A stretch of DNA of 64,000 bases from a virus (lineage: Duplodnaviria; Caudoviricetes): IMG/VR virus record IMGVR_UViG_3300032218_002424, positions 45,064 to 109,063 of that record. One strand, 5' to 3'. This document shows positions 3,001-64,000 of the stretch, in pieces. The notes below the pieces were generated by a model, which saw only the letters and a program-made list of their open reading frames with translations, was not told where the DNA came from and did no database searches. The first letter of the stretch is position 1. Each line of letters begins with the position of its first letter. The position numbers and the translations under genes are program-made.

Positions 3001-5980
3001 TATGGTTAATCGTGCTTCTGTAAGAGCAATTAGAAGCGGATTCCTTCCATCAATGACTAGAGTTGTAGATTCAATGGGCTACGATATGCACACTAGAAAC
3101 AGAGGACTTGCACCAGTACCTTATGCCAATGGAGTAACAAAACTTCCAGGTTATGGCGGTGGAGATATTATTCCAGCTATGTTGGAGCCAGGAGAGTCTG
3201 TTGTAACAAAGCAAGCAACTGCAAGATATGCACCAATCATTGATATGATGAATAAAGGTCAACTTCCAGGTTTTGCACAAGGAGTTACAGGTATTGGAAA
3301 ATTAGGTAACTTTGCTAAAAATATAATTACAGGTCCAGGAATTGTAGCAAGTCTTGTTGGAGGTATTGCTGGACAAAATATTGGTAATCAATTAGGTGGA
3401 ACATTTGGCGGACTTGCTGGTGGAATTATAGGTCCAGCATTGTTAAGTCCAGTAATGAAATTGGGTGGAGCATTATTTAATGTTGCTAAAGCTGGCGGCG
3501 GAGTAAGAACAGTTTTGATGGGATTGAGAACAGCATTAATGGCAAATCCGTGGGGACTTGCAATTACTGGAACATTAGCGGTTGCCGCAGGAATGTGGAA
3601 ACTTTGGGACAATGCTAGAAAAGCAAGACAAGCTTCTGTAGATGCATTTAAATTAACTGGCAAAGAAGCTGCTGAAGCAAAAATTAAAGTTGTAAGTTTT
3701 TCAGACAATATTAAATCTGCTATGGAGAATGCTAAAAAACAAGCAGAATTAAACAAGGCATTAATTGAATCAACAAAAATTGCAGGTGGCACTGGCGGAT
3801 TAAATATGACAGTTAAAGAACTTAAAGAAATGCAAAAGTCTGCTAAAGAAACAATGCCAGATATTGTTAAGATGTTTGATCAAATGGATCGTTCAGATGT
3901 TGTTGCAAATGCAGCAGCACTAAAAGCACAATTTGTAGCAGGTGGAAAATCAGCAGAAGAAGCATCAAAGATGATTTTTTCAATTATCTCTGTTTCTAAT
4001 AAAGCTGGTATGGCAGTTAAAGCAATTTCTTCACAAGCGTTTGTTGATATTAAAGATAAGGCAACCGCAGCAACATCTTCTATAATTGCATTCAATAATG
4101 CAATGAAGGTTGGAGCAGATAAAAAAGAATTAGCAGCAGCTTTTGATTCAGCAATGAGTTCCGTAGATGCATACTATCAAAGTCTTGTTGGAAGCAAAGA
4201 TGAAACTGGACATATCATTACACAGACAGAAGCCCTTGCCATGTCTATGGATAAATTAAATAAGAATGCAAAAACAAATAAGGCAATTGGTGCAGACCAA
4301 CTCGCAATCTTATTAAAAGAACGTCCAGAAATGTTGGGAATTCTTAGTGCAACAGATAGCACTGCAGATGCATATGCAAAGATTAAACTTTATACATCAG
4401 GAATTGCAGCAGACTTAACAAACATTAGCGGCAAACAAGCACAATCAATGTTGTCAGCACAAACAGCATTACAGCAAAGTGCAACAAATATTACTACAGA
4501 TGCATCTCTTGGTGCACCAACTTCTGGTTTAGCAGCACTTGGAACAAAGGCAGCAACCGATTCAAAGAATGCAGCTGCCGCTGCATCTGCTGCAGCTAAA
4601 GCAGCACAAAGAGATATTACTGCTGAAACAAATGCAATTGATAAAAAAATTCAAGCAATTAAAGCAGAAGCAGATGCAAGAAAGAAAGCATTGTCAGAAC
4701 AACAAGCATCTGCAGATATATCTCTTCAAATTCAACAGCAACAACTTAAATATCAACAAGCAATTGCTACTGGTAATATGGCAGATGCTGCTTCAGCACA
4801 ATTAGAAATTCAAAAGTTAAGTGGACAACGTCAGACACAACTTGCTCAAAATGCGATTGATAATAAAGCACAATCTCAAACTGAGGCCCTACAATCTCAA
4901 AAAGATGGTTTGGCAGCATCAATAGCAGCAGCTCAAAAGAAAGCAACAGATCTTCAAGGAAAAGCAACTGGTGCTGCAGACTATAGTTCAAAAATTCAAG
5001 CAATCCAACAAGCTATTGCGGGATTAATTTCTGAAACATCTCTTACTAGTGATCCAGCAACAATTAAAGCAAATGGAATAAAGTTAAGTCAGCAACTAGA
5101 TGCCTTAAGAAAACTTGGATCTGAAGGTGTAAAGGCGGCAAATGCAATTGCTCCAACTTCTGGAAAAGTTTATAATGGTTCTACTCTTGAAAATAAGCCA
5201 ACCGACTACGCACAAGTTCTTCAGCAGCTTGCATCTAAAAATGAACAAAATGCAAAAGATCAAAAATTATTTAGTGGATCGGTTTCAGATTTTGCAGCAG
5301 CAGTAGCACTCTTTAAGGGAGTTAACACAACTGGAAGTAATACAACCTTTACAAGTGGAAAAGCAGCTGCAGCAGCATTTAATAAAAAAACTGGCGGGTC
5401 TTGGGGTGCTAGTCAATTTGATAATTTTGAAACAAAAGCAAATACAAATTCTGATAGCGTATCTTCACAATTTGGTAAAGGAATGGGATATTCAGAAGGA
5501 ACAGAATTTTCTGTAGATCATAACTTTAAGAGATACACATATAAGATGCAAAAGAATAAAGATGGAAATCTTTATGCAGCATTTGAATCTGTTACACAGC
5601 TTCCAAAGAAAGCACAAGGTGGACTTATGTTTGGTCCAGGAACTGGAACATCTGATTCAATTCCAGCAATGCTTTCTAGAGGAGAGTATGTTGTTAAAGC
5701 ATCTGCTGTTCAAAAATATGGCGTTGGCACATTAGATAGCATTAACTCTCTTAAGATGGCAGCAGGCGGAATGGTAATGTCATATGGAGACACTTCAAGA
5801 TATATGGGCGGCGGAAGAATTGCTATGGCACAGGGTGGACAAGCTACCACTGGAAATGTTATAATTTCTAATAACATTACTGTTAATGGAACAAACCTAT
5901 CTGGTGATGAAATTGCAAGAGCAATTACTGTTGAACAAAATCGTCAAATGGCTATGAGCGGAAGAAGAAGGACTTATTAA
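1..5980 (+). CDS. Tape measure protein (5'-truncated; frame is open from the window start)
   Basis: More than 1970 aa, Ala/Lys/Gln-rich and helical. Has a TP901-type TMP core (AMKATLAIQNAF...LEALFGK), Gly-rich hydrophobic segments and two 'D.IPAML..GE.VV' motifs typical of TMPs. No stop codon in frame upstream of 68. Confidence 0.93.
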   Translation, partial: GTGLIKDLAKQQAALQNAIVQPMGRNAQGQMQFNVHVPAGIDELANKTKIAKQEMSILNKVMSDGANQLINWGKNTQWAGRQLTVGLTVPMAAFGQAAAQSFMQIDTELTRLTKVYGGLSATSQTELTKVRNETIKTAKELSSAYGVNFKETIALAADIAATGKQGNELMSSLRETTRLSVLGEVSRQDAMKATLAIQNAFKQNTTELGQSIDFLNAVENQTSTTLQDLVNAIPKAGPVVKGLGGNVKDLALMLVAMKEGGVDAASAANGLKSALGSLINPTKTAKGLFQSFGIDLGSIVNNNAGHVTDTIMALQEALNKLNPLQKQQALEALFGKYQFARMGALFDNLGKKGSQTLQVLDLMKASTQDLAGVAQRELAQQTESASGKYKRALESLRADLATVGSGFLGVSTNLLKIADGILKAFNALPSPVKKFVTLLGGLTAVAGPIIMLTGVFSNFLGYVLKGFAGIRAFFSHADKFKLLTPDIRAANEAGLLIEKTFYSDAEAAIVLKNALSALKLEMQQIAALANEHTITAKPLVGGISGTQIGGLDFAHYNPQARLTEEQRLQQTFHTAIPLDPSTNKKIGENPQVMMMPGQGIAKVQGLTMINGATTGINAAESAKWNAMMTTMAMRTKSEMQAVEKVLIETGQLPAEFMADFNVILPKMQAIATTAAESSARVARSAEQGILSVKAAQSEIEAINAAMIADMNALSIASGVPQARMTMVPGTNTAIASGTAVAGNQDYNMRSVLRSGEGRMGGITSRISNALKIGIRRIKLQNGGTAIGHYSKGFTPKSAMAAARMLKAFAKRSSGIGGLRTPNLRGTGSGPSTISASEAGTGISFGLLTKRNSKVYQDPTIQEYGITPTSGNDFLVHALTPGYRARTASLPTMGTQSTPSVPADRFAEFGITTSSKSPYLQTLPTQFVKNTKQFNEALRAGADASQFRQVTGPDMVSLLLFLKDQGVSAGKAKVIAERAANVLNELVASSNVPITEELFGNMVNRASVRAIRSGFLPSMTRVVDSMGYDMHTRNRGLAPVPYANGVTKLPGYGGGDIIPAMLEPGESVVTKQATARYAPIIDMMNKGQLPGFAQGVTGIGKLGNFAKNIITGPGIVASLVGGIAGQNIGNQLGGTFGGLAGGIIGPALLSPVMKLGGALFNVAKAGGGVRTVLMGLRTALMANPWGLAITGTLAVAAGMWKLWDNARKARQASVDAFKLTGKEAAEAKIKVVSFSDNIKSAMENAKKQAELNKALIESTKIAGGTGGLNMTVKELKEMQKSAKETMPDIVKMFDQMDRSDVVANAAALKAQFVAGGKSAEEASKMIFSIISVSNKAGMAVKAISSQAFVDIKDKATAATSSIIAFNNAMKVGADKKELAAAFDSAMSSVDAYYQSLVGSKDETGHIITQTEALAMSMDKLNKNAKTNKAIGADQLAILLKERPEMLGILSATDSTADAYAKIKLYTSGIAADLTNISGKQAQSMLSAQTALQQSATNITTDASLGAPTSGLAALGTKAATDSKNAAAAASAAAKAAQRDITAETNAIDKKIQAIKAEADARKKALSEQQASADISLQIQQQQLKYQQAIATGNMADAASAQLEIQKLSGQRQTQLAQNAIDNKAQSQTEALQSQKDGLAASIAAAQKKATDLQGKATGAADYSSKIQAIQQAIAGLISETSLTSDPATIKANGIKLSQQLDALRKLGSEGVKAANAIAPTSGKVYNGSTLENKPTDYAQVLQQLASKNEQNAKDQKLFSGSVSDFAAAVALFKGVNTTGSNTTFTSGKAAAAAFNKKTGGSWGASQFDNFETKANTNSDSVSSQFGKGMGYSEGTEFSVDHNFKRYTYKMQKNKDGNLYAAFESVTQLPKKAQGGLMFGPGTGTSDSIPAMLSRGEYVVKASAVQKYGVGTLDSINSLKMAAGGMVMSYGDTSRYMGGGRIAMAQGGQATTGNVIISNNITVNGTNLSGDEIARAITVEQNRQMAMSGRRRTY

Positions 5981-21700: not shown

Positions 21701-22661
21701 TATAACAAGGTATACACCTTCACACATTAAATCTGTTCTTAAATCGCTTAATGTAAAAGTTGCCAGCGAAACAGGAAACGATTTTTTGGTTTACTGTCCT
21801 TTTCATTCTAACAATCACAGTCCAAGTTGCAGTGTTAGTAAAGAAAAAGGTGCATGGCTTTGCTTTAATCCTTCATGTGGAGAAAGCGGAACATTAATTG
21901 ATTTAGTAAAACGTATAACAAATAGAAATGATTACGAGGCTTTGCGTTTTGTTACGGCAAAAGAATCAGAAGTTTTGGCAAATTTCGATGACTTGCTTCA
22001 AGATACTTTAGAAGAAAAACCAGACTTTGTAGAGTTTGATAAAGATATATTAAATAAGCTTTCTTTAGAAATGAAAGAATTTTCTGAAGGCAAAGAGTAT
22101 ATGTATACTCGTGGATTCACAGATGAAACATTGGAGTATTTTAATGTTGGTTATTCTAATAATAGATCTATGGTTACAGTTCCTGTTCATAGTCCAGATG
22201 GTATTTGTGTTGGGATTGTTGGCAGAAGTATCAAAGCCAAAGAGTTTAAAAACTCCCCAGGGCTTCCAAGGAATGCTACCCTCTTTAACATTAATCGTGC
22301 TAAGCGTATCGGTGCAACTTGCATCATTGTGGAGTCTAGTTTTGATGCGATGAGAGTTCATCAGGCTGGTTTTCCAAATGTTGTAGCAACTTTGGGGGGA
22401 CATATATCTGCAAATAATTTAGGATTACTCAATAAATATTTTAACAGACTTATTATAATGACTGACAATGATCAGGCAGGAAGAGCATTGGGCAATAATA
22501 TTGTTCATAAGTTAAAAAATAAAGATGTCTTGTGGGCTTCAGAATCTTATGGTAAGATATACCCACATGATGCAAAAGATGCAGGCGATATGACTGATGA
22601 AGAAATTAAAACCTGTATAAAAAACTCAGTTTCGCATATTGAATATGTCAGCTGGGAATGA
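21681..22661 (+). CDS. dnaG: DNA primase (CHC2 zinc finger plus TOPRIM)
   Basis: CPFH...C...C zinc finger; VESSFD and DNDQAG TOPRIM motifs. Confidence 0.92.
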   Translation: MKTLQSNITRYTPSHIKSVLKSLNVKVASETGNDFLVYCPFHSNNHSPSCSVSKEKGAWLCFNPSCGESGTLIDLVKRITNRNDYEALRFVTAKESEVLANFDDLLQDTLEEKPDFVEFDKDILNKLSLEMKEFSEGKEYMYTRGFTDETLEYFNVGYSNNRSMVTVPVHSPDGICVGIVGRSIKAKEFKNSPGLPRNATLFNINRAKRIGATCIIVESSFDAMRVHQAGFPNVVATLGGHISANNLGLLNKYFNRLIIMTDNDQAGRALGNNIVHKLKNKDVLWASESYGKIYPHDAKDAGDMTDEEIKTCIKNSVSHIEYVSWE

Positions 22662-22718
22662 TATAATAGTAATACAGATGGATTTACACCATCAACTACA
22701 TAACAAAAGGAGATACAA

Positions 22719-27554: not shown

Positions 27555-28553
27555 ATGAACATAGAAGATATTTTATCTAATTTAGATCCTAAAACTAGAA
27601 AAAGAGTTCAGTCTGCAGTTGATGTAAAAGTTGATAAGCAACTTACACCAAGTGTTGGATTGAATATGGCATTAAAAGGCGGACTTGGATATGGTCGTCA
27701 AGTCCTTGTATGGGGCAACAAGTCAGCAGGAAAATCTTCGTTTTGTTTGCAGATGATTGCATTAGCACAACAAGAAGGCAAGACCTGTGCTTGGATTGAT
27801 GCTGAAGCATCTTACGATCAATCATGGGCAGAATCATTGGGAGTAGATTCAACTTCTCTTATTTATTCTCCAGCAAAAACTGTAAATGATATGGTTGATG
27901 TTGCTACAAAGCTTATGGAGGCGGGAGTAGATTTAATTGTTGTTGATTCCATCTCAGCACTTCTTCCAGCTATCTACTTTGAAAAAGATGGAAATGAAAT
28001 GAAAGATTTGCAAGACACCAAGCAAATCGGAGCAGAAGCAAAGGATATGACCCATGCGGTCAAGATGTTAAATTATGCAAACAAAAACACATTACTTGTT
28101 CTCATCTCACAACAACGAAATCAGTTTGGATCTATGCATGCTTCGCACATCCCCACGGGTGGAATGGCAGTCAAGTTCTTTTCCTCAACAGTCATTAAAC
28201 TTTGGTCGTCAGAAGCTGAAGCTAATGCTATTAAAGCTGGCATTAAAGTTGGCGACAAGATTATCGAACAAAGAGTCGGAAGACCAGTTAACTGGATTAT
28301 TGATTACAACAAACTCGGCCCCCCTAATCTATCAGGACAATATGACTTTTACTACCAAGGGGACTCTTTGGGTGTAGATAGTGTTGGAGAAACATTAGAT
28401 GTCTCTGAAATGATGGGCATTGTTCAAAAGGGCGGTGCATGGTACACAATTGGAGAAGAAAGATTCCAAGGTCGTGCTAAAGCAGTAGAATATCTTCGTG
28501 AAAATCCAGAGGTAGTTGGAAAGCTTAAGGAGGAAATTCATGTCAGATCTTAA
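27555..28553 (+). CDS. recA: RecA/UvsX-like recombinase
   Basis: GNKSAGKS, WIDAE, IVVDS, TGG.AVKF, GAWY. Confidence 0.93.
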   Translation: MNIEDILSNLDPKTRKRVQSAVDVKVDKQLTPSVGLNMALKGGLGYGRQVLVWGNKSAGKSSFCLQMIALAQQEGKTCAWIDAEASYDQSWAESLGVDSTSLIYSPAKTVNDMVDVATKLMEAGVDLIVVDSISALLPAIYFEKDGNEMKDLQDTKQIGAEAKDMTHAVKMLNYANKNTLLVLISQQRNQFGSMHASHIPTGGMAVKFFSSTVIKLWSSEAEANAIKAGIKVGDKIIEQRVGRPVNWIIDYNKLGPPNLSGQYDFYYQGDSLGVDSVGETLDVSEMMGIVQKGGAWYTIGEERFQGRAKAVEYLRENPEVVGKLKEEIHVRS

Positions 28554-29380: not shown

Positions 29381-30169
29381 ATGGCAAAAGGAATTGTAAA
29401 TAATTTAAAGTTTAGAAAGTATTCTGGCAAGTTTGATGCAGAACTTTTTTCACAAAGACTTGAGGATGCCTATCTTGCAACTAAACGTGCTGATGGAGAG
29501 ATGACAAAGTATTCGTTTAGTCCAAGTACAATTGGTTATGGACATGGAAACTGCCCAAGATATTGGTACATGGCATTTAGTGGTGCAGATTTTGTTGACG
29601 ACAACAAAGCACAAGCAGTTGCTAATATGGCACAAGGAACTCAAGCTCACGAACGTTTACAAAAACTTATTGCAACAATGCCAGAGTTTGTTGAAGAAGA
29701 ACGTGAAATTAAAAATGAATATCCACCTATTCGTGGTTTCATTGATCTTGTAATGAACTATGATGGCGAAACAGTTATCGGTGAAATTAAAACTGCCAAG
29801 CAAGAAGTTTGGGATACAAGACAATCTGAAATGAAATCTTCAGCAAACCACATGCTTCAATTACTTACTTATATGAAGTTAACTGGTGCTAAAGAAGGAT
29901 TCTTTTTGTATGAAAATAAAAATACTCAAGAACTTCTGGTCATACCAATTAGCATGAATGAAAGAAACCAAAAGATAATTGATGACACTTTTGAATGGTT
30001 ATGTAAAGTTTGGGATAATTTTAAAGAGGGAGATCTTCCAGTAAGACCAGAAGGTGCAGTTAAAACTAAATCTCCATGCACATATTGTCCAATCAAAAAA
30101 GCTTGTTGGTCTAAAACAGCTGATGAAGGATCCGTGGAAATAGAAATGTTTAAGGTACCACTTATATGA
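29381..30169 (+). CDS. Cas4-like/RecB-family exonuclease
   Basis: CPR, GT..H, GFID, EIKT, QL..Y, C..CP...C Fe-S ligands. Confidence 0.88.
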   Translation: MAKGIVNNLKFRKYSGKFDAELFSQRLEDAYLATKRADGEMTKYSFSPSTIGYGHGNCPRYWYMAFSGADFVDDNKAQAVANMAQGTQAHERLQKLIATMPEFVEEEREIKNEYPPIRGFIDLVMNYDGETVIGEIKTAKQEVWDTRQSEMKSSANHMLQLLTYMKLTGAKEGFFLYENKNTQELLVIPISMNERNQKIIDDTFEWLCKVWDNFKEGDLPVRPEGAVKTKSPCTYCPIKKACWSKTADEGSVEIEMFKVPLI

Positions 30170-31685: not shown

Positions 31686-32008
31686 TGTTAAAGCCAGTAT
31701 TTGAAGATGCAAAAGAATTTTCATGTAGGGATTTATACTTGCATTCAGTTAGTGCCCCTTCAGGAAGTAAAATATGGTCAGCATGCCATGAAGTAGCTCA
31801 CCTTCTTATTGAAAAAAATATATCTTATGGAGATTCAGCATTAAACCCTGCAAGGATATTTTCACAGGCGGATTCAACAGAACAATTAAAGGTTCGCATT
31901 GATGACAAGCTTAATAGAGTTATAAATAATCAAGGATATGCTGGAGATAACGATATTGATGATTTGATTGGCTATTTAATCTTGTTTAAAATTGCCTTAC
32001 AGAATTGA
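31685..32008 (+). CDS. Nmad1/DUF1599-like all-alpha NTP-PPase-fold protein
   Basis: KN.SYGDS...RIDDKLNR...DLIGY. Confidence 0.7.
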   Translation: MLKPVFEDAKEFSCRDLYLHSVSAPSGSKIWSACHEVAHLLIEKNISYGDSALNPARIFSQADSTEQLKVRIDDKLNRVINNQGYAGDNDIDDLIGYLILFKIALQN

Positions 32009-36780: not shown

Positions 36781-36840
36781 GGTACCTGCCTTCGGGGGGT
36801 ACCTATATTACTTATTCGCTTAAAAAGGAGGAATAAAATG
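36781..36840 (+). promoter_or_regulatory. ROSE-like RNA thermometer in the hsp20 5' UTR
   Basis: cUUCGg hairpin, then UUAUUC(G)CUU pairing with GAGGAAUAA over the SD; TGCTATAAT at 36767-36775. Confidence 0.6.
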
Positions 36841-37266
36841 GTAACACAATTTACTATGGATCTTTTTAATGATCCTTTTTTCATCGGGTTTAATCGTGAC
36901 TTTGACAAGTTGTCAAGAATTCACACCCATGCTACAGGAAATAACTATCCACCATACAATGTAATCAAAACTGACGACGAAGATCTATTCTACGTTGAAG
37001 TTGCAGTTGCTGGATTCTCAAAAGAAGACCTTGAAGTAACTGCTCATGAGCAGGTTCTTACTGTTAAGGGAGAAATCAAGTCTTCTGATGACGAGGAACC
37101 AAAGTATGCTTATCGTGGTATTGCTGCAAGAAAGTTTACTCGTGAATTTGCCCTTGGTGAATTTGTTGAGGTAACTGCTGCAACAGTTGAAAACGGAATG
37201 TTGAAGATCACCTTGGAACGTATTGTCCCAGAAGACAAGAAGCCAAAAACAATTAAGATCAAGTAA
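36838..37266 (+). CDS. Small heat-shock protein (Hsp20/IbpA family)
   Basis: YPPYNV, AVAGF, RGIAARKF.R.F.L, NGML.I. Confidence 0.93.
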   Translation: MVTQFTMDLFNDPFFIGFNRDFDKLSRIHTHATGNNYPPYNVIKTDDEDLFYVEVAVAGFSKEDLEVTAHEQVLTVKGEIKSSDDEEPKYAYRGIAARKFTREFALGEFVEVTAATVENGMLKITLERIVPEDKKPKTIKIK

Positions 37267-41197: not shown

Positions 41198-41241
41198 TTG
41201 ACAGGGCCTTATACTAAACGATATAATTAGTATAGGGCCTT
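41198..41241 (+). promoter_or_regulatory. SigA promoter overlapping a hairpin, upstream of tRNA-Asn/Leu
   Basis: TTGACA-N18-TATAAT inside the inverted repeat AGGGCCTTATACTAA/TTAGTATAGGGCCTT. Confidence 0.75.
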
Positions 41242-44448: not shown

Positions 44449-44853
44449 TGGAAAAAGATCCAATGATCGAAAAGCAACAGAGCATGTTAGAGGGAATTGT
44501 TGCTGATATTGTAGTAGAAGTTTACCAAAAATGGTTAAACCAAATGCCAGAAGAACAGCGAAAAGATGAACAGGCCACTCAGACATTAGGAGCTAATGCT
44601 TCTGAAGTTGTTTATTTTGTTGTACAGCGTTTTATGGATAAATTTAATGAGGCAGCTGAGCAAGTAAAAAATGCCTAAGATCGCCTTGATATCTTCAGCT
44701 ATATATGATATTATAGAGCCTGACAGCTCGTTTGAAACAGAACTTGTTGACATCCCTCAAGTCATACTTGATAGATATGATAGGGTTATGAAAGAATTTT
44801 GGGATCTCCAAAATGAATTTGAACAGTACCAGAGAGCACAGGAAACAGATTAA
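44448..44853 (+). CDS. Two hypothetical ORFs (44448-44678, 44671-44853)
   Basis: Coupled ORFs. Confidence 0.55.
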
Positions 44854-45155
44854 TGATTTTAACTGATAAAGATTTTGATGAAGTAATTAATTCTGAAAGA
44901 GTGGTTTTAGTTGATTTTTGGGCTGAATGGTGTGGACCCTGCAAAAAGGTTTCACCAATTTTAGATGAAATTTCAAATGAATTTCAACTTCCAGTTGGAA
45001 AGTTGAATGTAGATGAAAATATAAAAAAAACAAAAGAATATGGTGTCGGATCAATTCCAACACTAATTCTTTTTGTAAATGGCGAACCAGTAAACACTAT
45101 TATAGGTGCAAAGCCAAAGCATGTTCTCATTAAAGAACTGCAAGACTGGATTTAA
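44853..45155 (+). CDS. trxA: Thioredoxin
   Basis: DFWAEWCGPCK, SIPTL. Confidence 0.95.
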   Translation: MILTDKDFDEVINSERVVLVDFWAEWCGPCKKVSPILDEISNEFQLPVGKLNVDENIKKTKEYGVGSIPTLILFVNGEPVNTIIGAKPKHVLIKELQDWI

Positions 45156-46297: not shown

Positions 46298-47866
46298 ATG
46301 AAAAAAGTAGATAAAATTGTTATTGTGGGTGGAGGCTCTGCAGGTTGGATGACCGCAGCTACACTTATTAATGCATTTCCAAATAAAGATATAACCTTGG
46401 TAGAAAGTCCCTATGTACCAACACTTGGAGTAGGAGAAAGCACACTTAATGCAATGCCAGCATGGTTGTATTCGCTTGGAGTAAAACTTGAAGATTTTAT
46501 GGAATATACTGATGCAAGTTACAAACTAAGCATTAAGTTTAATGATTTTTATGAAATTGGCGATGGTGGATATCATTACCCATTTAGTGAACCATTTTTA
46601 GATAACTGCGTAATGCCTGGAGCAAATGACTGGCATGTATTGAAGCATATGGTTCCAGAAACACCTAAGCAAGATTATGTAAATTCTGTATGGCCAAATT
46701 CAGTTCTTTTGGATAGTGGAAAAATTTATACTGGAACAGAACTAGAAAATTTTAGATTTGAAAAAGATAACGCATTGCACTTTGATGCAATTAAGTTTGC
46801 AGAATGGTTAGCTGAAAAATATGCTAAGCCTCGTGGAATTAAACATATTGAAGCAAATGTAAATGATGTTGTGGCTGATTCAGAAGGTGTCAAAAAGTTA
46901 ATTTTAGAAGGCGGAGAAGAATTAACGGCAGATCTATTTTTTGACTGTACTGGATTTAAGAGCATGTTGCTTGGCAAAGCAATGAATGAACCTTTTGTGT
47001 CATATGCAGATAAACTTCCAGTTAATAGCACTTGGGCAGTTCAACTTCAATATGAAGATGCAGAAAAAGAAATTAAGAACTATACAGATTGTACAGCATT
47101 AGGCAATGGTTGGGTCTGGATGGCTCCTCTATGGTCTAGAATTGGAACTGGATACGTTTATAGTGATAGATTTACTACTAAAGAAGCTGCATTAGAAGAA
47201 TTTAAAGAGCACTTAAGGTCATATCATGGAGCACATAGAATTACCGATGATCTAAAGTTTAGAGAAGTTCCATTTAGAGCTGGTCACTATGAACGTACTT
47301 GGGTTAAGAATGTGATCGGTATTGGAATGTCAGCAGCATTCCTAGAGCCACTTGAAAGTAATGGAATTTACTTTATTCATGAACATTTACGTGAAGTTGT
47401 AAGAGGAATTAATAAAGGCTTTTATAATGGTATAAATAGAGATCTTTATAATGCTTATGTTCAAAAGCGTTTTGACCTTTTTGCAATATTTATTCAATAT
47501 CACTATTCTTTGAGTAAACGTAATGATACTGAATTTTGGAATTATATGACAAACAATGATGTAACTGGAGACATTTGGGGCGGTTACAATAACCATATAA
47601 CATTATTTGGAGACAAGATTGAAGGTCAATCATATCGTGCAGCAAAAGATTCTGGATTCCATGCTATTGCTGTTGGAATGGAATACTATACTGTTGACAT
47701 GTTGACAACCAAATATTGGAACTGGCACTTTGATACAGACTATAAGAAAGTAGCTGGAGAATTTTATTTGAGAACACAAGAATCTCGTAAAAAGTGGTTA
47801 AAAGCAATTGAAAATGCACCATCGCATTATCAATACCTAAAAGACAATTTTCATTCAGGAGAATAA
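46298..47866 (+). CDS. Flavin-dependent tryptophan-halogenase-family protein (PrnA/RebH-like)
   Basis: VIVGGGSAGW, GVGES, catalytic K (SYKLSIKF), F.DCTGF, GWVWMAP, FLEPLES. Confidence 0.9.
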   Translation: MKKVDKIVIVGGGSAGWMTAATLINAFPNKDITLVESPYVPTLGVGESTLNAMPAWLYSLGVKLEDFMEYTDASYKLSIKFNDFYEIGDGGYHYPFSEPFLDNCVMPGANDWHVLKHMVPETPKQDYVNSVWPNSVLLDSGKIYTGTELENFRFEKDNALHFDAIKFAEWLAEKYAKPRGIKHIEANVNDVVADSEGVKKLILEGGEELTADLFFDCTGFKSMLLGKAMNEPFVSYADKLPVNSTWAVQLQYEDAEKEIKNYTDCTALGNGWVWMAPLWSRIGTGYVYSDRFTTKEAALEEFKEHLRSYHGAHRITDDLKFREVPFRAGHYERTWVKNVIGIGMSAAFLEPLESNGIYFIHEHLREVVRGINKGFYNGINRDLYNAYVQKRFDLFAIFIQYHYSLSKRNDTEFWNYMTNNDVTGDIWGGYNNHITLFGDKIEGQSYRAAKDSGFHAIAVGMEYYTVDMLTTKYWNWHFDTDYKKVAGEFYLRTQESRKKWLKAIENAPSHYQYLKDNFHSGE

Positions 47867-54374: not shown

Positions 54375-55453
54375 TTAGTTATCTTCAATTAAAGACATTC
54401 TATCTTTAATTAGTTTTGCTATGAGGTTGTGTGCCTCAATATTTTCGGTTTCGCTGCCACCCCATAAAAGCTTTTGGGCCTGGGCCAGGACTGAGTCTAC
54501 ATATTCATCACTCATCTTCATCTTCTTCCTCCTCATTATATTCAATGGCATCAATATCCATTAGCCAATCGCTAATGTGATCGTCAAGTGTTTCTGTGCC
54601 ATATTCTAATGTAAATCCATTTGAATCTGCTTGCTCCCAAAATAGTTTCCAGACTTCTTCGTCAGTCATGTTAACCTTGTACTCTTCATCATCTCTGAAG
54701 TTGTTTAACATGCTCTTGGTAACATCCCAGGTCCATACCCAAACCAGGGACGGGAACACAGGAAGTTTACCAATCTTATCAATAATTACATTAATGTCTT
54801 TGTATACATCTTGCATACGTGTTTGTTCTTGTAGGTCCATTAGTTGTCTTTCTCCAATTCTGCTTTAGCAAATGCGATTGCATATGTTAGTTGGTATAGT
54901 TCTCCATATGTCTCAAGGACACCTTCCCAGTACTTCCGCTCCATTGAATCCATTGCTTCGCCTGAATCTTCTTCTGCTTCTTGTGCCATTTCTAGTTGTG
55001 CCTCTGCCTCAACCATAAGCGTCTTCAGGTGCCCGTGCATGATGTCCGCCCCGTCCATGCCCAAGATAACTTGGCGGGACAGATATGGGTCTAGTGTGAT
55101 ATCCATATTATTCCTTTCCATTTAGCAGTAGTATACCATTGGCCACTGACATTAAATGCCTGGTATTTAAAATCTCTGCTTCCTTACATCTATAAAAATG
55201 ATGTTCATTTACATAATCAATCTCTTCTAGGTCTTGCATTAAACTAATCTCATGTAGTTTCATATACTCTAATAATGAATCTATTTTAACCTTCATATCC
55301 ATCAAAGTATCCCTCCGCCCAAAGTCCTTGTAAAAATTCTGATGCTTTATTTAATCCTTCTGCCAGTTCTGTTTGGGCAGGTGGGATATAAATAGAAGAA
55401 TCTCCTACTGATTTAATCATATGGTTTAAATCTTGCAAATCATAGCCTAACAT
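54375..55453 (-). CDS. Five small early-type ORFs (54375-54515, 54508-54840, 54840-55121, 55108-55305, 55286-55453)
   Basis: Coupled acidic ORFs; the first and last were read manually. Confidence 0.6.
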
Positions 55454-55579
55454 TATTCCGCCTTTCGTATATGAGTATTATATATCAGATGACTGACATT
55501 TGTCTACGTAAATTCCTGTGATTTACACCACATCCCCGTAAGAGAGAAGATCCGTCCCCAGCCCTTAGCAGAGCTGAGA

Positions 55580-55700
55580 AAGGGAAGAACCCTGGCGGTC
55601 TCTCCAACACCAGGGTTCTTCAGGGAACGTTAGGCTGCATCCACACTATGCATATTTAAAGACTTGGTCTGACGGGACCTGAAAGCCTCACCTAACTTCA
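55580..55700 (-). ncRNA. Candidate small RNA
   Basis: TGGTATAAT at 55706-55714; closing stem GTTAGG/CCTAAC; terminal hairpin AAGAACCCTGG/CCAGGGTTCTT; no convincing ORF. Confidence 0.4.
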
Positions 55701-55718
55701 AATTAATTATACCATATT

Positions 55719-57291
55719 TCAGTTGACTGTAAAGTCATGGTATTCTTGAACCTCTTCCTGATAGTTACAGAATGATTCAAATGAATGCCAATTGCCTTCA
55801 TCACAAACCATTTGTGTAGTCATATCAATTTCTACTGTTGTGTCCCAGTATTCTTGATTAGCATTTGCAAGATAGATTCCGAAACCAGTTTCCTCGTCCC
55901 GTCCTTCTTTAGTTAATTGGTCCATGATAATACGTGTTGAATATGGAATGTCACCCATATCAATACGACGCTTTGCAGCCCGCAGTGCTGCAGATAAATC
56001 CTCACGCCAGGATGTTTCACCCCAGTGTGAATATAAAACTAAGTTTGGCATATCCAAATCAGTTTTAAATACAAAGTTAATCCGTGCTCCCATTTGAAAC
56101 CTCCGCCATTTCTTTTTCTTGTTGGGCCGCTAATTCTACTATCTCATAAGACCATTTGTCAAGGGCCTCTTTAAATTCATCTAAATGATGTCCACAAAAG
56201 AACAGGCTGCCAGCCATACCTTTTGCTTCATAGAGTGCCTGAGCAACTCTACATTTGTCGCATCCAGTCCATGTCAAATTATCCCCGATTCAATTAAATC
56301 TGCGATATCTTGGTAAGTGTGTACAGGTTCGTCATTACGATCCATAAGCTCAGACAATGTTTCGACAAGCAATTCTCGTGCATGTCTCACACCATCATCA
56401 AAGCCTTCTCTATAGTCTGACATATTTATTCTCCATATGGGTGATACGGCTCAAACTCTGAAACATAAACTTCTGTTAGATTATACTTCTCACGTAAGTT
56501 TGATACTTTCTCAATGCTACCAGTTCCGATGTTGAATGTCAACGGTTCTGTAGATGCTTCTGGGTCCAGACCCATGATGTTGGCATCCCACACCGCCCTT
56601 TGAAAGGCGATGCGGGACGGAGCGGAAAGTTCAAAGTACATTAGTAAGCACCTTCCTCAACACGTTCAACATCATGGTTGGTAACCTGAATCAATGCATC
56701 ATATGAATCAACGGTTAGATTAGTTGCAATAAAATCTTCAATTGCATCCATGTCTCCACCAAGTTCAACTTCAACAGTTAAATCAACACGTACCCATGCA
56801 GTGTATTCAACTTCCTTGGTTAGAGGAATATCAAAGATTTCTGCAATTGCAGTCAATGTCTCTTGGTCTTCTGAATCAGCAAATGTCTCTTCAAGCAATG
56901 TACGCAACTGGCTTTCCTTACGGTACCACTCGTTTTGCTTTTCAGTTAGACTCTTGTACCAGCGACGGCCTTGGTCAAGGGAATATTCAATCTCTGTAAC
57001 CTTTTGAACGGGATAAGATACTTCATCCCCGTCAATCTTCTTATATGTTACAAGTAGATTAGGATTATATGTCTCGTTAATTGTTATTGTTGTTTCCATG
57101 GTTTCCTCTTTCTGTGTGGGTATAACGGGTATTGTAGCATCTTCCACTGACAATAAGGTAGTATTTGAACCACATAAACATGTGATATCTGTCACATTTG
57201 GGGTATATCCTGATTTAAGTATATATTCAATTAAAGCATTGCATTCTCCATTACAGACCCAAGTATATTTAAACCATTTTAGATCCATCAT
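55719..57291 (-). CDS. Early-type ORFs (55719-56093, 56077-56277, 56274-56423, 56426-56641, 56641-57291)
   Basis: Coupled ORFs with RBSs; 55719-56093 has the common phage 'YSHW' motif. Confidence 0.6.
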
Positions 57292-57397
57292 TGCTCCTCT
57301 ATTTGTTCTGTTTTAGGATTCCAATATCCAAATCCACAATTAAATGTACAAGTATAAACCCCTGGAACATCTGAACATAACCAATTATGTTTATGCA

Positions 57398-58150
57398 TTA
57401 TGCACCTGCTTTCCTATATTCAGGCACCTTTGTATCAAGGTACTGCTTATGGTCTTCACATTGTTCAACTGCTTCTAGGTCAGCCTCGCCAAGCCAATGG
57501 CATGCGGAGCAAATCTCACCGCAGTCATTTTCGCAATACTCCATGCAATCATGTTCATCACAATCACGGCATCTAGATTCATACTCACCATGGCTAATTA
57601 CTACACCACGAAGAATCTCTAGTTCACCACCCCAACCAGTCTCTTCCTCATATGATAAAGTAAAAAGTAGATTAGGATATTGAGCAGACAACTTTTCAAG
57701 GGCGGGAAGTGGAATACCCCATGCTGTATTAAAGTTATAATATACAACTAAGTTATCACCATTTTCAGTAGGACCTTCCATATATGTCTCTGGATATTCA
57801 TTATCCTCAGATACAGCAACATCCCATTTTGTTCCCCATTCACGATTATTCCATGAATACCAAGAATTATCTACAGATGCTACCTTCATTGTATCTGCCC
57901 ACCAATTTGGGTCATTTACATCTAATTCAGAACGCTTAGGCTGTGCCTTATATGCTTCCAAATCTGTTGGAGCAATGATATTGCGAAATGAAAATATAGG
58001 ATTAATATACTTAGTTTGTTTTACACCAAATGCCAAATCACCTGTTGCTTCAATATAATCCACAAATGGTGTGTTCATTTGTTCTACTAGTTTTGTTACT
58101 TGTTCTGGCTTACCTTCAATTGTTAAACCATTATATACCCAGTTTGGCAT
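57398..58150 (-). CDS. DUF1281/YubB ferredoxin-like family protein
   Basis: MPNW start (ATG 58150, AAAGGA RBS); WY.WN...WGTKW, FNTAW..P, YEEE; Cys-rich tail. Confidence 0.75.
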   Translation of the reverse strand: MPNWVYNGLTIEGKPEQVTKLVEQMNTPFVDYIEATGDLAFGVKQTKYINPIFSFRNIIAPTDLEAYKAQPKRSELDVNDPNWWADTMKVASVDNSWYSWNNREWGTKWDVAVSEDNEYPETYMEGPTENGDNLVVYYNFNTAWGIPLPALEKLSAQYPNLLFTLSYEEETGWGGELEILRGVVISHGEYESRCRDCDEHDCMEYCENDCGEICSACHWLGEADLEAVEQCEDHKQYLDTKVPEYRKAGA

Positions 58151-58291
58151 AATCTTCCTTTCTTGAGAGATGATGGAATTATACACCACCCCACTGACAT
58201 TCACAAGCATTTCCAGTGGTTTTTTTCAGGTTCCCGTATGATAAAGATCACACCCGTAAGAGAGGGCATCAGCTCGTATCTTTTGCGGGCA

Positions 58292-58325
58292 TGCATATTT
58301 ATGCAGCTTTATGCATATTTATACT
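58292..58325. promoter_or_regulatory. Tandem ARG-box-like operator (second pair at 61520-61553)
   Basis: TGCATATTTATGCA-N6-TGCATATTTATACT; 20-bp period at both loci. Confidence 0.6.
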
Positions 58326-58328
58326 TTG

Positions 58329-58402
58329 CGATTCCGACGGGACTTGAACCCGCAACCTCTACCGTGACAGGGTAGCGATCTAACCAATTGATCTACGGAA
58401 TC
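58329..58402 (-). tRNA. tRNA-Asp(GTC)
   Basis: GATTCCG/CGGAATC; CTACC-CTGTCAC-GGTAG. Confidence 0.93.
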
Positions 58403-58405
58403 AGA

Positions 58406-58434
58406 TGAGCAGTTTTAATTCGTGCTCAGGAATT
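58406..58434 (-). ncRNA. Repeated H-type pseudoknot, copy 3
   Basis: AATTC-CTGAGCAC-GAATT-AAAAC-TGCTCA. Confidence 0.7.
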
Positions 58435-58439
58435 TATTT

Positions 58440-59489
58440 TTATTTCGTTAGAGCAAGAACTTGCTTAACGATTTTATTTTTTTCTGCGGTAACAACTGGG
58501 TCGAATCCAGATGCACCTGCCATTAGCGAATCGCCTGCTTTACGAGCAGTGCGGAAATAATCCAAACGCTCAGTTAGAGCATTTACAACGCCCCAAGCAG
58601 TGCCCTTGATATTAGCATTGGTTGGCGAATTGTGATACAACTCATCAAGCAATACAACTTTATTTTCCCATTTAGTAAGAGCAACCTTAGCCGCATCTTT
58701 TTCAGGCTTTGGATAAAGTGCTTTCACAATTTGTGAGAACTTTGCATCGGTTACGGAAATCTCATAGAGTTCCTTAGCCTGCTTTTCGAATTCGTCCATA
58801 TAACCAAGAGTTAAGCCAAGAGCCTCACGAGCAGCGAGAATCTTACCATCAACAGTTTGGGTGTGGCGAATCTTGAAAGACTGCTTAGCCTTCTTCATTG
58901 CAAGGTTAAGAGTATTTTGGCACATTACACGAACAGGAGTAATTGCAGACTGAACTGCAACTGAACCATCGTGAGATGTCCAGACGATTAGATACAACTT
59001 AGTTTCATCTGCTGCACCATTAGGGTCAAGCACCATTGTGCGGGGAATTGAAAGAGAGCCATAGACTACACGACCATTCTTTAGAGAACCCGCAGACTCC
59101 CAATAAACATCTGGGTTGCCATCGTGAAGGTTATCCGCAAACGAAAATAAATCCTCATTTTGGACAGTCTTATAACGAGAGCCAACAGTTGCAAGGACAT
59201 TCTTTGTACCTGCATTGTAAGGGTCATCACGAACAACAAGAAAATTCTCGCTGACTGAATTGTAATTTGCAGGTAGCAAATCTGCAACAGGCTCTAACTG
59301 AACATTCCAATTAGAGAGTTTAGCACCATCAAGCATTTGTGCAGTTGTAACTGCCTCATCTTGATTGAACACCTTATTGGCAAAAGAGTGCCAAGCAGGA
59401 TTGGTACGAAGATTTACAGCAAGAGATGCTGAGCCATCTTCGATTTCTGACTTGTGAGCAGTATTGCCCACTGGAGATTGAACTGACAT
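58440..59489 (-). CDS. DUF932 / TIGR03299-family phage-plasmid protein
   Basis: PAWH, Y..VQN, ESAGSL..G, SHDGS, TPVRVMCQNTL, IRHT, GTAWG..NA.TE. Confidence 0.9.
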   Translation of the reverse strand: MSVQSPVGNTAHKSEIEDGSASLAVNLRTNPAWHSFANKVFNQDEAVTTAQMLDGAKLSNWNVQLEPVADLLPANYNSVSENFLVVRDDPYNAGTKNVLATVGSRYKTVQNEDLFSFADNLHDGNPDVYWESAGSLKNGRVVYGSLSIPRTMVLDPNGAADETKLYLIVWTSHDGSVAVQSAITPVRVMCQNTLNLAMKKAKQSFKIRHTQTVDGKILAAREALGLTLGYMDEFEKQAKELYEISVTDAKFSQIVKALYPKPEKDAAKVALTKWENKVVLLDELYHNSPTNANIKGTAWGVVNALTERLDYFRTARKAGDSLMAGASGFDPVVTAEKNKIVKQVLALTK

Positions 59490-59766
59490 ATGAGTTATCC
59501 TTTCGATTAGATTGGCTTAATTATAACAGGTGCCACTGACATTGTATAGTTAATTTAGGGAATGTCTCAAGCTTTGAGATGTGATCAATCTCACAGATCT
59601 GGGGGTTGTGGACGACACGCCGTAAGCCTGTGGATAACCCCGCAGATATACGGGCGGCTAACCGATTTGTCAAATCTATTTTGAATTTCTAAACAAATAA
59701 ATAATTAATGCAAGGGGGCTAATCAAAAATCCAATTAGCACCCAAGCAATTAATTCACCGATAACG

Positions 59767-62700
59767 TTATACATTCACCTTGCGGTTTCTATGATTAGCA
59801 AGAACATCCATTGGATAATAAACAGCCATTGTCTTCTTCTTCTTTAAACTATCATATACATATGCTTTTACATTACCTTGAAACTTATCAACATTAGACC
59901 AAACTAATTGTGATAGTCCTTCTTTATCAAGACCTTCATCAGAAAAAATTCTGATGTCATTTGCCTTGACTTCATCATAGATGTCAATACGAAAACGCAT
60001 TTTGATCCATTTCGCTAGTAGGGATAGAAAGAGCAGTTTTAACTCATGCTCAGGAGTATTGTAACATTACTTACCGATTTTGACCATTGCCCAACGAAGC
60101 CCGCCCTCAGTCATTAGACCGAGCTTTGTTAGATTAGGACGAACAGCAATAATTTCTGTAATTGTTCCTGTTACGCCTGACTTGCCAGTTGTGAAGATGT
60201 CGCCCTTTGAGTAGAAACGACCTTTTGTTACATCTAGGATTGGAGACATTTTATTTTCTTTCTGTTAGAAGTTGGTTGAGGGTTCTTACTTACGACATTG
60301 GGCGAGGACTCCCTCTAAACTGCCCCTGTTTCGATTATTTAGTTAGAGATACTTAGCGATTGACTTCATAGTAGAAGCATTAACTGTTTCCTCATCTGTC
60401 ATCTTTAAGATGTTGAGGGCGTTGTTAATTTCCTCCACGATTTCACGATAAGTGTGGTCGTGCATAGTTGTGAAATCACGCTGTGGTTCAGCAGGGAAAT
60501 CGCCTTCTGCTACTGTTAGGTCAAAATCTACATTGAGAGTTTTGTTCCAAGAACGATAGTTTGTGCGAAGGTTCTCAGCCTTAGCAAAATTAGCAATAGC
60601 ATACTTACCAATTTCCTTACGCCATTTTTCCATAGCCTTTTGGAACTTTGCTTCGTTGCTTGCTTCATTTTCTTTATCAGACTTGAGAGTTGCCAACTTT
60701 GTTTCCAAAGCCTTGATTACCTTTGGTGTTGCCACCTTTACTGTGATTGCTCTTGTCATTTTATTTCCTATTCTTTGTGTGGGTTGTTGTTGAGAGTATT
60801 ATAGCAGAGGCTACTGACATAGCCCCTGCTATTATTATTTACTTAGAACTTTACTGTTGTAAAGCGTTCCTGTCCATTTACATCAAGCAAAACACGAGTT
60901 GTGTTTGCGTTGATTGGTTCGATAGCAACGATTGTCCCTGTTACATTTGACTTCTGTGTTGTAAAGAGGTCGCCTACCTGATAGGTTTGTGTTCCGATTG
61001 TCATTTGTTTCCTGCTTTCTGTTTGTTGTTGATAGAGAGTATTATAGCGGATAGGGCTGACATTTATCAAGCCCTATCCCACTATTTGAGATAGATTTGG
61101 TGTGATAAAAATCACGCCAATTCTAGAAACATTTCTGTTCCGCCTGCGTTAATAAATGCTACCATTGAAACTAATTCATCATGAGTTGTTGTTTCGGTAA
61201 TTGACAAGCATTCATCTACTGCCTGCTTATTCATTTCAATAAACGCCTCGCCCATCTTTGCAATTTGTGGAGCATAACGGGAGGAATTAGAAATACGAGA
61301 TACGAACTTAATGTCCTTATGTGTAAATGGATAAAGAGTAAAGCCTGTTGTTGTCATTTATTGTCCTTTGTTTGTGTGAATAAGAGTATTGTACCGTAAC
61401 CCACTGACATTTTCTAATCCATTTACGGCGTGTCGCAAGATTTGTGAGATTTCTCACAGGATCCAGGGTTTTCCACAACTCCACTTAAACCTGTGGATAA
61501 GTCCTCAAAAGAGCGGGCCTGCATATTTATGCATTACTCTGCATAATTATTTTTATATTTATTTTTGCGAGTATATTTTTTCTTATTGCGAACAGGAGTT
61601 GCGGCGTTACTACGCCGCAGCTCTTGTACACGTTTTACTTTTTCCATAATTTTATTCCTCATAGTATTCGTCATCTTGACACCATGCTTCCAAGTGGTGG
61701 CTTTCAATAATTGCCCATGCAGGTGCATAAGTTTCACCACGCCAAGTTATACCTTCAGGCAAATCAATTTTGCGTTCGGTGCTATCTTCCCAGTATGCAT
61801 CAATAGCATCAATACATGGTTGCACCATTGAAAGTGGAACGGGTGGATAGTGATTAGAACGCAATTGTATTGCAATTGAACTTTCTAAATCTAAATTCAT
61901 TGTAGCAAGATCAGAGGAGAGATTATTACCCATTATTATTTACCTACCTTTGTGTTGTAATTAATTGCGTCATAGAATCGGGTGACATCGAAATTAGAAT
62001 TATCTTTGCCAAACATTACTGCAAACTCTCTCGCTAAGTATCCATATACTGCGGGGTGAGTTTTATCCTGCACACTAGCAAGAATTTCAGCGGTTGAAAT
62101 ATAGTCTTTACGGCTCATCATTATTTTTCTACCACCCTTCTACCTTCACGATAGAATATTTTAGTGTAACACTTGCCTGAAGGCGTGTAGAGATTAACAG
62201 TAGAATATTTATCTGCGAATCCCCAGTCAATAAACTTTGCAAACTCTTTATGAGCCTGCAATTCATCTGAGTATTGGAATACACCGAACGGCGTTGTATT
62301 CTCATCATAGGTTACAGTAATTTTATACATTATTATTCACCGACCTTTACTGCAACAGTTGCATAGAAATCATTACGGAAGATACCCTTGCCGTCATAGG
62401 TAGGGCGGACTTTAACGAGATAGGCTTCGGTATTTTCTCCATACCAAACACCATCACGCTTTTCAGCATATTGGATAATTCCGTCTAATCCTTTGCGGGA
62501 ATTAGAGCGATAGTATTTACCTTCTAAGAGGCTTTCGATATTGTAACAGTTAGCCATTGTGACTACCTTCTTTCTTTTGATTGTTAGAGGACATTGTAGC
62601 AGATAGCACTGACATCGCTTCTGCCTTTGAGTTTTGGCGTGTCGCTAGGACATACGCCTTATATTCATCTAGGTTCATTTCTGACCTTCTTTCTACTAGA

Positions 62701-63717
62701 GGCAATTTATGCAATTGCAAGACTTAGAACGGATTAAGTAGCGGAATAATTCCATACGAGTATATTTATCTAATCCATACGATGACTTAACGCCACCATT
62801 GTGATATTCATGAACGATAGTAGAGAATAGAGTTTCATTTAGTGTAGTCATTTTGACCACCTTTCTTTTTTAGGTTATGCTGAAATTATAGCAGAGGGGT
62901 CTGACATTTCTCTACTTACTAGCCAGTAATTCCAAATATTGAGACGCTCAAGGGTGTGAGTTGCACCACATTCCAGGTGTGATAAATATCACGCCATAAG
63001 AGACACGCCCGAGCCCGTGTCTTTTGCGGGCCAGCTTGATTTTGTCAAGCCAACACGCCGTTACATTCCTAAAATATATTCGGCGGGATCTTCATCGGCG
63101 GGAACACAATCACACACCATTACATCAAAGTCATTGTTATCACCAAAGAAAACAAATCCTGCACCATTACATTCCTCGCAAGGAATTCCAATTACATCTT
63201 GTAGATTACCCATTATTATTTCTCCTCTATATCTGATACATATGTATCTAAGCCTTTTGTTTTATAATCAAACCAAGAAATTGCGGAATCATAGTCTTCC
63301 GCTTCTATTGTTATGAAAGTTGTAAATTCAAATAGTGGCATTAGTCTGCCTCCTTAGTATTAAATAAAGCACCTTCTTGAAATAAACCAATTTCAATGCT
63401 TAGCATTTCATCTGGAGTGGCTTCAGATAAATCTACCCAACCAGCACCATTTTCATTCATACGAAAAATTTCAATGTAACCCATTATGATTACTCCCAAC
63501 TTCTAGTAGTAGCAATTACTACACGATTAGAAGGGACATAATTTGGAAGGTATTCCAAATTAGTTTCGAGGATAGTTCCTCGCTTTGCTAGAAGGTCTAG
63601 CATTTCATTAGCAGAGTATTCATCTTTTACGAGAACACCTAAGCAAGTACCGAAATTTTTGCTTAGTGGATAAGCAGGGTCGGTATTGTATTCGATTTTA
63701 TAACTTAGTGAAAACAT
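59767..63717 (-). CDS. Small early-type hypothetical ORFs (59767-60000, ORF ending 60067, 60343-60759, ORF ending 60843, 61112-61357, 61652-61933, 61936-62121, 62121-62330, 62333-62557, 63490-63717 and shorter ones)
   Basis: Most have AAGG/GAAAGG RBSs downstream of the repeated promoters. Confidence 0.6.
60031..60057 (-). ncRNA. Repeated H-type pseudoknot, copy 4
   Basis: ACTC-CTGAGCAT-GAGT-TAAAAC-TGCTC. Confidence 0.7.
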
Positions 63718-64000
63718 TTTGTTTTCCTTTCTTTGAGATAACCTTTATCTCTAATTCTTTATAGTGTAACTATAACACACACCACTGACATTTTGACCCC
63801 TTTTTCGGGCGTGTCGGAAATCTTTTTTTGTGATTTACGCCACATCCAGGCAATAATACAAATCGGACATAAGGTACAAATCGGCCCCCAAAAGATACGG
63901 GCCATGCTGACAATTGTCAACACGACACGCCGTTATTCCTGGATTTCTTTTAAAAGCTTTTCGATATCTTTTAAAATCTCTTCTAATTCTTTATCATTCT

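Follow-up and report, generated by a model that had tools for sequence, protein, structure and literature searches.

The promoters closest in layout to those described here depend on PafBC, a LexA-independent regulator of the DNA-damage response in actinobacteria. In vivo they share the consensus tGTCgg(N10)tA(N3)T, which lacks a -35 element and has its upstream part at positions -23 to -28; its GTC triplet is contacted by two arginines of PafB and is near-invariant across actinobacteria, and PafBC sits between region 4 of sigma-A and the DNA, an arrangement termed 'sigma adaptation' (PMC8635444). PafBC is itself activated by single-stranded DNA (ssDNA) (PMC11804915). We analysed a window of 64 kb (64,000 nucleotides), the right-hand part of a contig of 109,063 bases in IMG/VR (36% G+C) that comes from an uncultured lake phage of 110 kb. 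It carries an array of boxes of the form TGTCAG-N10-TAnnnT, which lies in a discrete leftward module of 11 kb with about 30 small genes. An original prediction, made from the letters of the window, held that these boxes wire the early genes of the phage to the PafBC promoter class of its host.

Other phage systems resemble the array in part. In T4 middle promoters, where AsiA and MotA appropriate sigma, a box about 11-13 nucleotides upstream of TAnnnT also replaces the -35 element, and the promoter can lie downstream of canonical early ones. The MotA box reads TGCTTtA, however, whereas here we found no phage activator among 20 scanned proteins of the arm and its head, and the box matches the site of a host activator. 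The host-takeover module of the Bacillus phage SPO1 and the pre-early region of T5 are likewise compact terminal blocks of many small genes, in which each unit has a strong promoter of its own, but there the promoters are of the canonical sigma-A or sigma-70 type and have a -35 element.

The promoter array of the leftward module

The pattern TGTCAG-N10-TAnnnT matches the window 13 times, whereas dinucleotide shuffles gave a mean of 0.71 matches and a maximum of 4. Eleven of the matches fall on the minus strand, within 55130-63790, exactly where they had been predicted (Table 1). The rest of the 109-kb contig has no additional minus-strand copy, and the reversed control pattern also gave none. 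The sequence TGTCAGTG is common to seven of the 11 boxes; as -10 hexamer, six of the 11 have TATAAT, three TACAAT, one TATACT and one TATAGT, again in agreement with the earlier reading. All 11 are followed by a GAAAGG-like Shine-Dalgarno sequence and an ATG 23-51 nucleotides downstream, which open genes of 51-349 amino acids, and thus they do lie just upstream of gene starts. A -35-like hexamer (at most one mismatch, spacer of 17 or 18 nucleotides) precedes only two of them (TTGATA for the box ending at 61062, TAGACA for that ending at 55498), so that most boxes indeed lack a good -35. The plus arm is canonical, as had been claimed, with perfect TTGACA-N17/18-TATAAT promoters at window positions 32005, 34580, 41198, 46226 and 49894. 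The claim that two boxes are kept inside coding sequence is plausible: those at 57131 and 55130 lie within frames, although the claim depends on which of the frames are real genes. Taken as a whole, the boxes mark a real promoter class of a special kind.

A near-identical scaffold of 110,871 bases from ENA (L212, in its positions 1-5490) bridges the right and left ends of the contig, which implies either a circular assembly or terminal repeats. Between these ends, beyond window position 64000, are about 2.5 kb that the contig lacks and that hold two further boxes (L212 4441 and 4769). Together with the 11 of the window, this makes 13 boxes per genome. The recognisable proteins of the module are only a DUF932 protein, encoded by the most conserved gene of the arm, and a DUF1281_C/Api92-like protein; most others are orphans.

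Conservation of the box in the phage family

We gathered 50 IMG/VR loci encoding a relative of the DUF932 protein, 45 of them at 35-40% G+C and five at about 50%. The 45 low-GC loci have 485 boxes on the gene strand, against four on the opposite strand and eight for the reversed control. Spacing is just as strict: TGTCAG-N10-TAYAAT occurs 243 times, and versions with N7, N8, N9, N11, N13 or N14 never do. A pattern scan of IMG/VR found the N10 version in at least 120 stretches, against 18 for a mis-spaced N11 control. Within the box, TGTC never varies; the fifth base is A in 87% and G in 13% of the sites, and the sixth is G. TGTCAG was counted 374 times and TGTCGG 42 times. The bases that follow TGTCRG are T-S-S, which resembles the 'gtg' of RecA-NDp.

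Of 44 relatives, 40 have the box at the promoter of the DUF932 gene and three more have TGTCAC there, while spacer and flanks vary. The genes behind the boxes vary as well. Two IMG/VR fragments of one sub-lineage (L254 and L259) have arrays of 14-16 boxes, which read TGTCAGTGG and mostly lack an extended -10, and share almost no sequence similarity with the arm of this phage. Since they keep the boxes all the same, they point to a very fast turnover of genes behind a constant promoter. Boxes also occur on two fragments without any tblastx similarity to this phage (L297, 46% GC; L265, 52% GC). The phage itself occurs in freshwater and aquatic metagenomes from four studies, and its boxes belong to a promoter class conserved across a large family of freshwater phage contigs.

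Candidate readers of the box

The box of the phage matches the published PafBC box in its sequence, in the freedom of position 5 between A and G, and in its exact spacing, and the match to the mycobacterial consensus that the original prediction had named holds against the published one (PMC8635444). At the 11 window sites and the 485 family sites an upstream GTC element lies at about -28 to -23, separated by a fixed gap of 10 nucleotides from a TAnnnT of sigma-A type. A -35-like hexamer is missing from nine of the 11 sites in the window and from about 80% of those in the family; 20% of the family sites have one. In short, the phage promoters have in common with the PafBC promoters (RecA-NDp, recA P1-type) of Mycobacterium and other actinobacteria (PMC8635444, PMC11804915) the layout of 22 nucleotides, the GTC, the canonical -10 and, at most sites, the lack of a -35-like hexamer. 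They differ in forming an array of 13 on a phage genome ahead of small orphan genes, in having mostly A at position 5 and many near-perfect TATAAT hexamers, and in their extended -10: host PafBC promoters do not need one, whereas 72% of the phage boxes carry its TG.

The phage is an actinophage, because its WhiB and DnaE proteins resemble those of Streptomyces phages of the family Stanwilliamsviridae (59.6% identity with phage Wakanda for WhiB and 57% for the DnaE-like Pol III alpha subunit). Further features in common with this family are a genome of more than 100 kb and the presence of tRNAs, seven of which are in the window. Searches of the phage detected neither a WYL domain nor a sigma-70 region 2. 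A local profile, derived from eight proteins of the PafB, PafC and single-chain WYL kinds, likewise picked out no PafB/PafC-like frame among 980 frames, with 0.06 as its best E-value. Since none of these was detected, a host factor would be the simplest reader of the box.

A promoter class dependent on a host WYL protein of the PafBC type is to us the best single explanation of the boxes, and we hold it with about even confidence. Such a promoter would combine a sigma-A type TAnnnT, usually extended by TG, with a TGTCAG at about -28 to -23 that replaces the -35, and the 13 copies per genome would head short transcription units in the leftward module. The reader would be a host activator of the PafBC type with winged helix-turn-helix, WYL and WCX domains (wHTH-WYL-WCX). 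Bound to ssDNA, it would fit between region 4 of sigma-A and the -26 element, as in sigma adaptation, and the module would be turned on or boosted when ssDNA appears, either as incoming or replicating phage DNA or through damage to the host. We infer the binding of a WYL activator, the ssDNA trigger and the early timing of the module. If a host WYL activator does read the boxes, this would be the first lytic phage to wire a block of genes to the LexA-independent DNA-damage regulator of actinobacteria. Sigma adaptation would then extend from a repair regulon to the conflict between viruses and hosts, and the box would provide a simple sequence signature by which ssDNA-responsive modules of phages and islands of hosts could be found in uncultured lake bacteria. 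The statement that no such wiring had been described for a phage agrees with what we found: no description turned up in the titles and abstracts of the best-ranked literature on PafBC and phages, or in the literature on RecA-NDp.

The proposal that the host ssDNA sensor is the activator is thus upheld in part. The identity of the box, the affiliation of the phage with actinophages, and its lack of a detected WYL or sigma protein speak for it; a number of observations in promoters, relatives and hosts weigh against it. A consensus extended -10 (TG at -15/-14) accompanies 72% of 930 unique boxes, 20% have a -35-like hexamer at a spacer of 17 or 18 nucleotides, and 26% have neither. An extended -10 can suffice for sigma-A, and many boxes could fire free of any activator. 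Because 72% carry one, PafBC need not be 'the' activator. The boxes might then be ordinary factor-independent extended -10 promoters, with TGTCAG serving as a spacer operator to which a repressor or shut-off protein of the host or the phage would bind. The ability of sigma-A alone to use many of these near-consensus -10 elements fits such a role, as does the DUF932 promoter, where a -35-like TGGACA and the box together make up an inverted repeat, GACA-N2-TGTC. We nevertheless consider it quite unlikely: the 26% of boxes with neither element would need an activator, and the arrays of L254 and L259 mostly lack an extended -10. Moreover, an operator needs no invariant distance of 10 nucleotides to the -10, yet none of the 243 sites deviates from it.

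Other contrary observations come from the relatives. Three Streptomyces phages of the same family have no box array, and according to the literature Streptomyces has PafBC-type promoters. The five relatives at about 50% G+C (L137-L139, L141 and L142) encode a DUF932 protein that is 54-55% identical, lack TGTCRG boxes, and use repeated cTTGAC-N17/18-TGnTAGnnT promoters instead, which suggests that the promoter class was switched along with the host lineage. In some cassettes, a canonical TTGACA-N17 promoter precedes the box by about 110-130 nucleotides, a tandem that recalls the early and middle promoters of T4. All this would be expected if the boxes were promoters of a middle type whose activator, like MotA/AsiA, is encoded by the phage; it could be made from the canonical TTGACA promoters or be carried in the virion. 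The box is limited to one clade of phages, and absent from the Streptomyces-phage and 50% GC relatives even though their hosts should have PafBC. The lack of WYL genes in many small low-GC actinobacterial genomes points the same way, and WhiB, a core protein and a binder of sigma region 4, lies behind a perfect canonical promoter. If a phage protein did read the box, this would be a new system of the MotA kind that imitates the site of a host.

We regard this as unlikely. For an unrelated protein, the identity with the PafBC box in sequence, degeneracy of position 5 and spacing would be a large coincidence. Searches with Pfam found no DNA-binding, MotA or AsiA family in 20 proteins of the arm and its head, and the rest of the genome was scanned in part. 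WhiB is also encoded by the Streptomyces phages that lack the box, and the box occurs on L297 and L265, the two fragments dissimilar to this phage. At the head of the array, the 2.5 kb known from the ENA scaffold hold a divergent pair formed by a 35-amino-acid frame resembling a C2H2 zinc finger and an orphan gene of 227 amino acids. Neither is conserved in the relatives, and we rejected the pair as reader of the box.

For the host side we used a sample of 401 Actinomycetota genomes. The tallies take in 14 genomes flagged as unpublished (G002, G019, G049, G083, G089, G121, G149, G175, G227, G240, G269, G319, G337 and G344), and no specific claim rests on them. A WYL protein is present in 344 of the 401 genomes, and the 57 that have none are mostly small. 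In the low-GC orders with small genomes the genes are patchy (5/5, 8/41, 1/8 and 3/6 genomes), which is a further argument against a host WYL reader. A large AT-rich order illustrates it best: eight of its 41 genomes have a single WYL gene, the members examined have no box before recA, and in 10 genomes the boxes (237) did not outnumber the control (284). Elsewhere among the small low-GC genomes WYL genes are few, and recA is preceded by a LexA box and a canonical promoter.

Separately from the distribution of boxes, the region upstream of recA in six members of the large AT-rich order (G014, G044, G144, G170, G196 and G387; loci L162, L167, L157, L172, L183 and L166) contains a conserved palindrome of 20 bp, TTATGnGCAATTGCnCATAA. 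It replaces the LexA and PafBC boxes, and a diverged LexA or some other regulator may bind it.

One small low-GC order (1.3-1.5 Mb) gives a different picture. Its genomes have two WYL genes each, TGTCGC or TGTCGG followed by N10-TATTAT/TATAAT precedes recA in three of four members (G021, G338 and G360), and TGTCAG-N10-TAnnnT occurs 43 times against 21 for the control. The box is also associated with CRISPR-Cas loci. In two low-GC genomes a lone wHTH-WYL-WCX gene is followed by TGTCAG-N10-TAAAAT/TATAAT and then by cas1 (G349, L189 1115-1136, minus strand) or by a cas8b of the TM1802 family (G415, L190 1424-1445), and in G418 TGTCAC holds the same place after such a gene (L191 1074-1095, minus strand). 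WYL-type regulators thus appear to use the box in low-GC actinobacteria, though they are not universal there. The regulators BrxR and CapW (PMC9122601, PMC9122588, PMC11662680) are similar in their wHTH-WYL-WCX architecture, in sensing ssDNA and in their position beside CRISPR-Cas or other defence genes, as the genes of G349 and G415 are beside cas. They are, however, repressors that act on palindromes, whereas the boxes before cas1 and cas8b have the geometry of a PafBC activator site.

These loci raise a tentative, and in our view somewhat doubtful, extension of the PafBC-type explanation: a whole and very abundant family of lake phages would run a block of genes, by sigma adaptation, through the ssDNA alarm activator of the host (PafBC or a single-chain WYL relative), and, with the same box before CRISPR-Cas genes beside WYL regulators in low-GC actinobacteria, the phage would ride on the defence switch of its host or compete for it. 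In another version, the array would be a decoy that titrates the WYL activator of CRISPR-Cas and repair genes and so blunts the alarm, with transcription of the small genes as a secondary effect. The location of the same box between a WYL regulator gene and cas genes in two genomes would suit a decoy, as would the 13 boxes per phage genome, which replication multiplies. We think it very improbable, given that all the boxes occupy the place of a functional promoter, each with its -10 and with a Shine-Dalgarno sequence and start codon 23-51 nucleotides downstream. As it also needs a host WYL activator, it is a variant of the PafBC-type explanation and not a true alternative to it.

Other elements and genes of the phage

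Many boxes have further putative regulatory sites nearby. A CRP/GlxR-like palindrome, TGTGA-N6-TCACA, lies within 130 nucleotides upstream of 42% of the boxes (window 55500-63950, minus strand, and loci L093-L136 and L231-L310). The centres of these palindromes are 26, 36, 46, 56-57 and 68 nucleotides from the T of TGTCAG, a helical ladder of 10 bp that places them on one face of the helix. In the window, they precede the boxes ending at 58199, 59541, 61062, 61409, 62906 and 63790. Perfect DnaA boxes (TTATCCACA / TGTGGATAA) occur in cassettes between genes, upstream of some boxes (minus strand, about 59600-59640 and 61470-61500; L212 4360-4375). Two recurring 9-mers, GGCGTGTCG and CGACACGCC, flank several cassettes and form a long-range inverted repeat (minus strand, 59560-59660, 61420-61440, 62620-62640, 62990-63010 and 63800-63930); at four of the 11 promoters, CGACACGCC precedes the box by about 20 nucleotides. 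The palindromes, DnaA boxes and 9-mers around the boxes would suit a module under the control of several host regulators, and they make a host reader of the -26 element more plausible.

Table 1. Positions of the promoter boxes and of selected genes in the 64-kb window.
Feature	Sequence	Position	Strand	Remarks
Promoter box	TGTCAGTGGTGTGTGTTATAGT	63769..63790	-	Ahead of gene 63490-63717 (75 amino acids), which it is predicted to drive
Promoter box	TGTCAGACCCCTCTGCTATAAT	62885..62906	-	Predicted to drive gene 62696-62851 (51 amino acids)
Promoter box	TGTCAGTGCTATCTGCTACAAT	62593..62614	-	Predicted to drive 62333-62557 (74 amino acids) and close-packed genes to about 61652
Promoter box	TGTCAGTGGGTTACGGTACAAT	61388..61409	-	Predicted to drive gene 61112-61357 (81 amino acids)
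Promoter box	TGTCAGCCCTATCCGCTATAAT	61041..61062	-	-35-like TTGATA with 18-nucleotide spacer; inverted repeat around box; predicted to drive 60843-61004 (53 amino acids)
Promoter box	TGTCAGTAGCCTCTGCTATAAT	60798..60819	-	TGTCAG in loop of inverted repeat; predicted to drive 60343-60759 (138 amino acids)
Promoter box	TGTCAGTGGCACCTGTTATAAT	59520..59541	-	Ahead of the DUF932 gene; place kept in 40 of 44 relatives
Promoter box	TGTCAGTGGGGTGGTGTATAAT	58178..58199	-	Predicted to drive 57398-58150 (250 amino acids, DUF1281_C/Api92-like domain)
Promoter box	TGTCAGTGGAAGATGCTACAAT	57131..57152	-	Within 216-amino-acid frame 56641-57291; followed by Shine-Dalgarno sequence and ATG at 57099 (152-amino-acid version of the gene)
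Promoter box	TGTCAGTCATCTGATATATAAT	55477..55498	-	-35-like TAGACA; predicted to drive 55286-55453 (55 amino acids)
Promoter box	TGTCAGTGGCCAATGGTATACT	55130..55151	-	Last box of the array; in 3' end of frame 55108-55305; predicted to drive 54840-55106 (88 amino acids)
Plus-strand match	TGTCAGCTGGGAATGATATAAT	22646..22667	+	Ahead of the DnaE block; present in 0 of 72 relatives
WhiB-family gene, 103 amino acids		41638..41949	+	Core gene also present in Streptomyces phages; perfect TTGACA-N18-TATAAT promoter ahead at 41198
DUF932 protein gene, 349 amino acids		58440..59489	-	Most conserved gene of the arm
tRNA-Asp gene		58328..58402	-	Inside the arm, just upstream of the box at 58178..58199

The two plus-strand matches of the pattern (22646 and 42704) look like chance occurrences. 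We rejected the one before the DnaE block as a functional box, since it is absent from all 72 relatives.

The contig encodes tail proteins, a terminase, DnaB, DnaG, a RecA-like protein, a Cas4-like nuclease, Hsp20 and thioredoxin. WhiB is a core gene of the phage lineage and not a recent gift of the host, because Streptomyces phages of the same family carry it too. Several attempts were made to name the host. Scanning genome contigs for the phage WhiB yielded nothing beyond 13-residue matches in Amycolatopsis, and a search of 35 small genomes found no WhiB match at E <= 1e-8. When 20 kb of phage DNA were compared with the 401 Actinomycetota genomes, the only matches were in tRNAs and the active site of thioredoxin, and the identity of the phage thioredoxin was nowhere above 59%. 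No genome of the sample showed small size, low GC and a rhodopsin together, the features by which acI (Nanopelagicales) might be recognised, and a protein atlas placed a PafB-like protein only in taxa at the rank of phylum. The papers found on freshwater actinophages with whiB and on acI concern other phages, and none of them names the host of this one; for Nanopelagicales and pupylation, we found no paper.

Elsewhere in the window there are genes for a RecA-like protein (27555-28553), a PD-(D/E)XK/Cas4-like nuclease (29381-30169), Hsp20 (36838-37266), thioredoxin (44853-45155) and a tryptophan-halogenase-like protein (46298-47866). The first two could produce the ssDNA that WYL activators sense. 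Finally, two of the minus-strand promoters contain inverted repeats of 9-10 bp, GCAGGGGCTA-TGTCAG-TAGCCTCTGC at 60798-60830 and GGGATAGGG...CCCTATCC at 61041-61085. As TGTCAG lies in or beside the loop, the boxes at 60798 and 61041 could be presented in a hairpin of single-stranded DNA or RNA.

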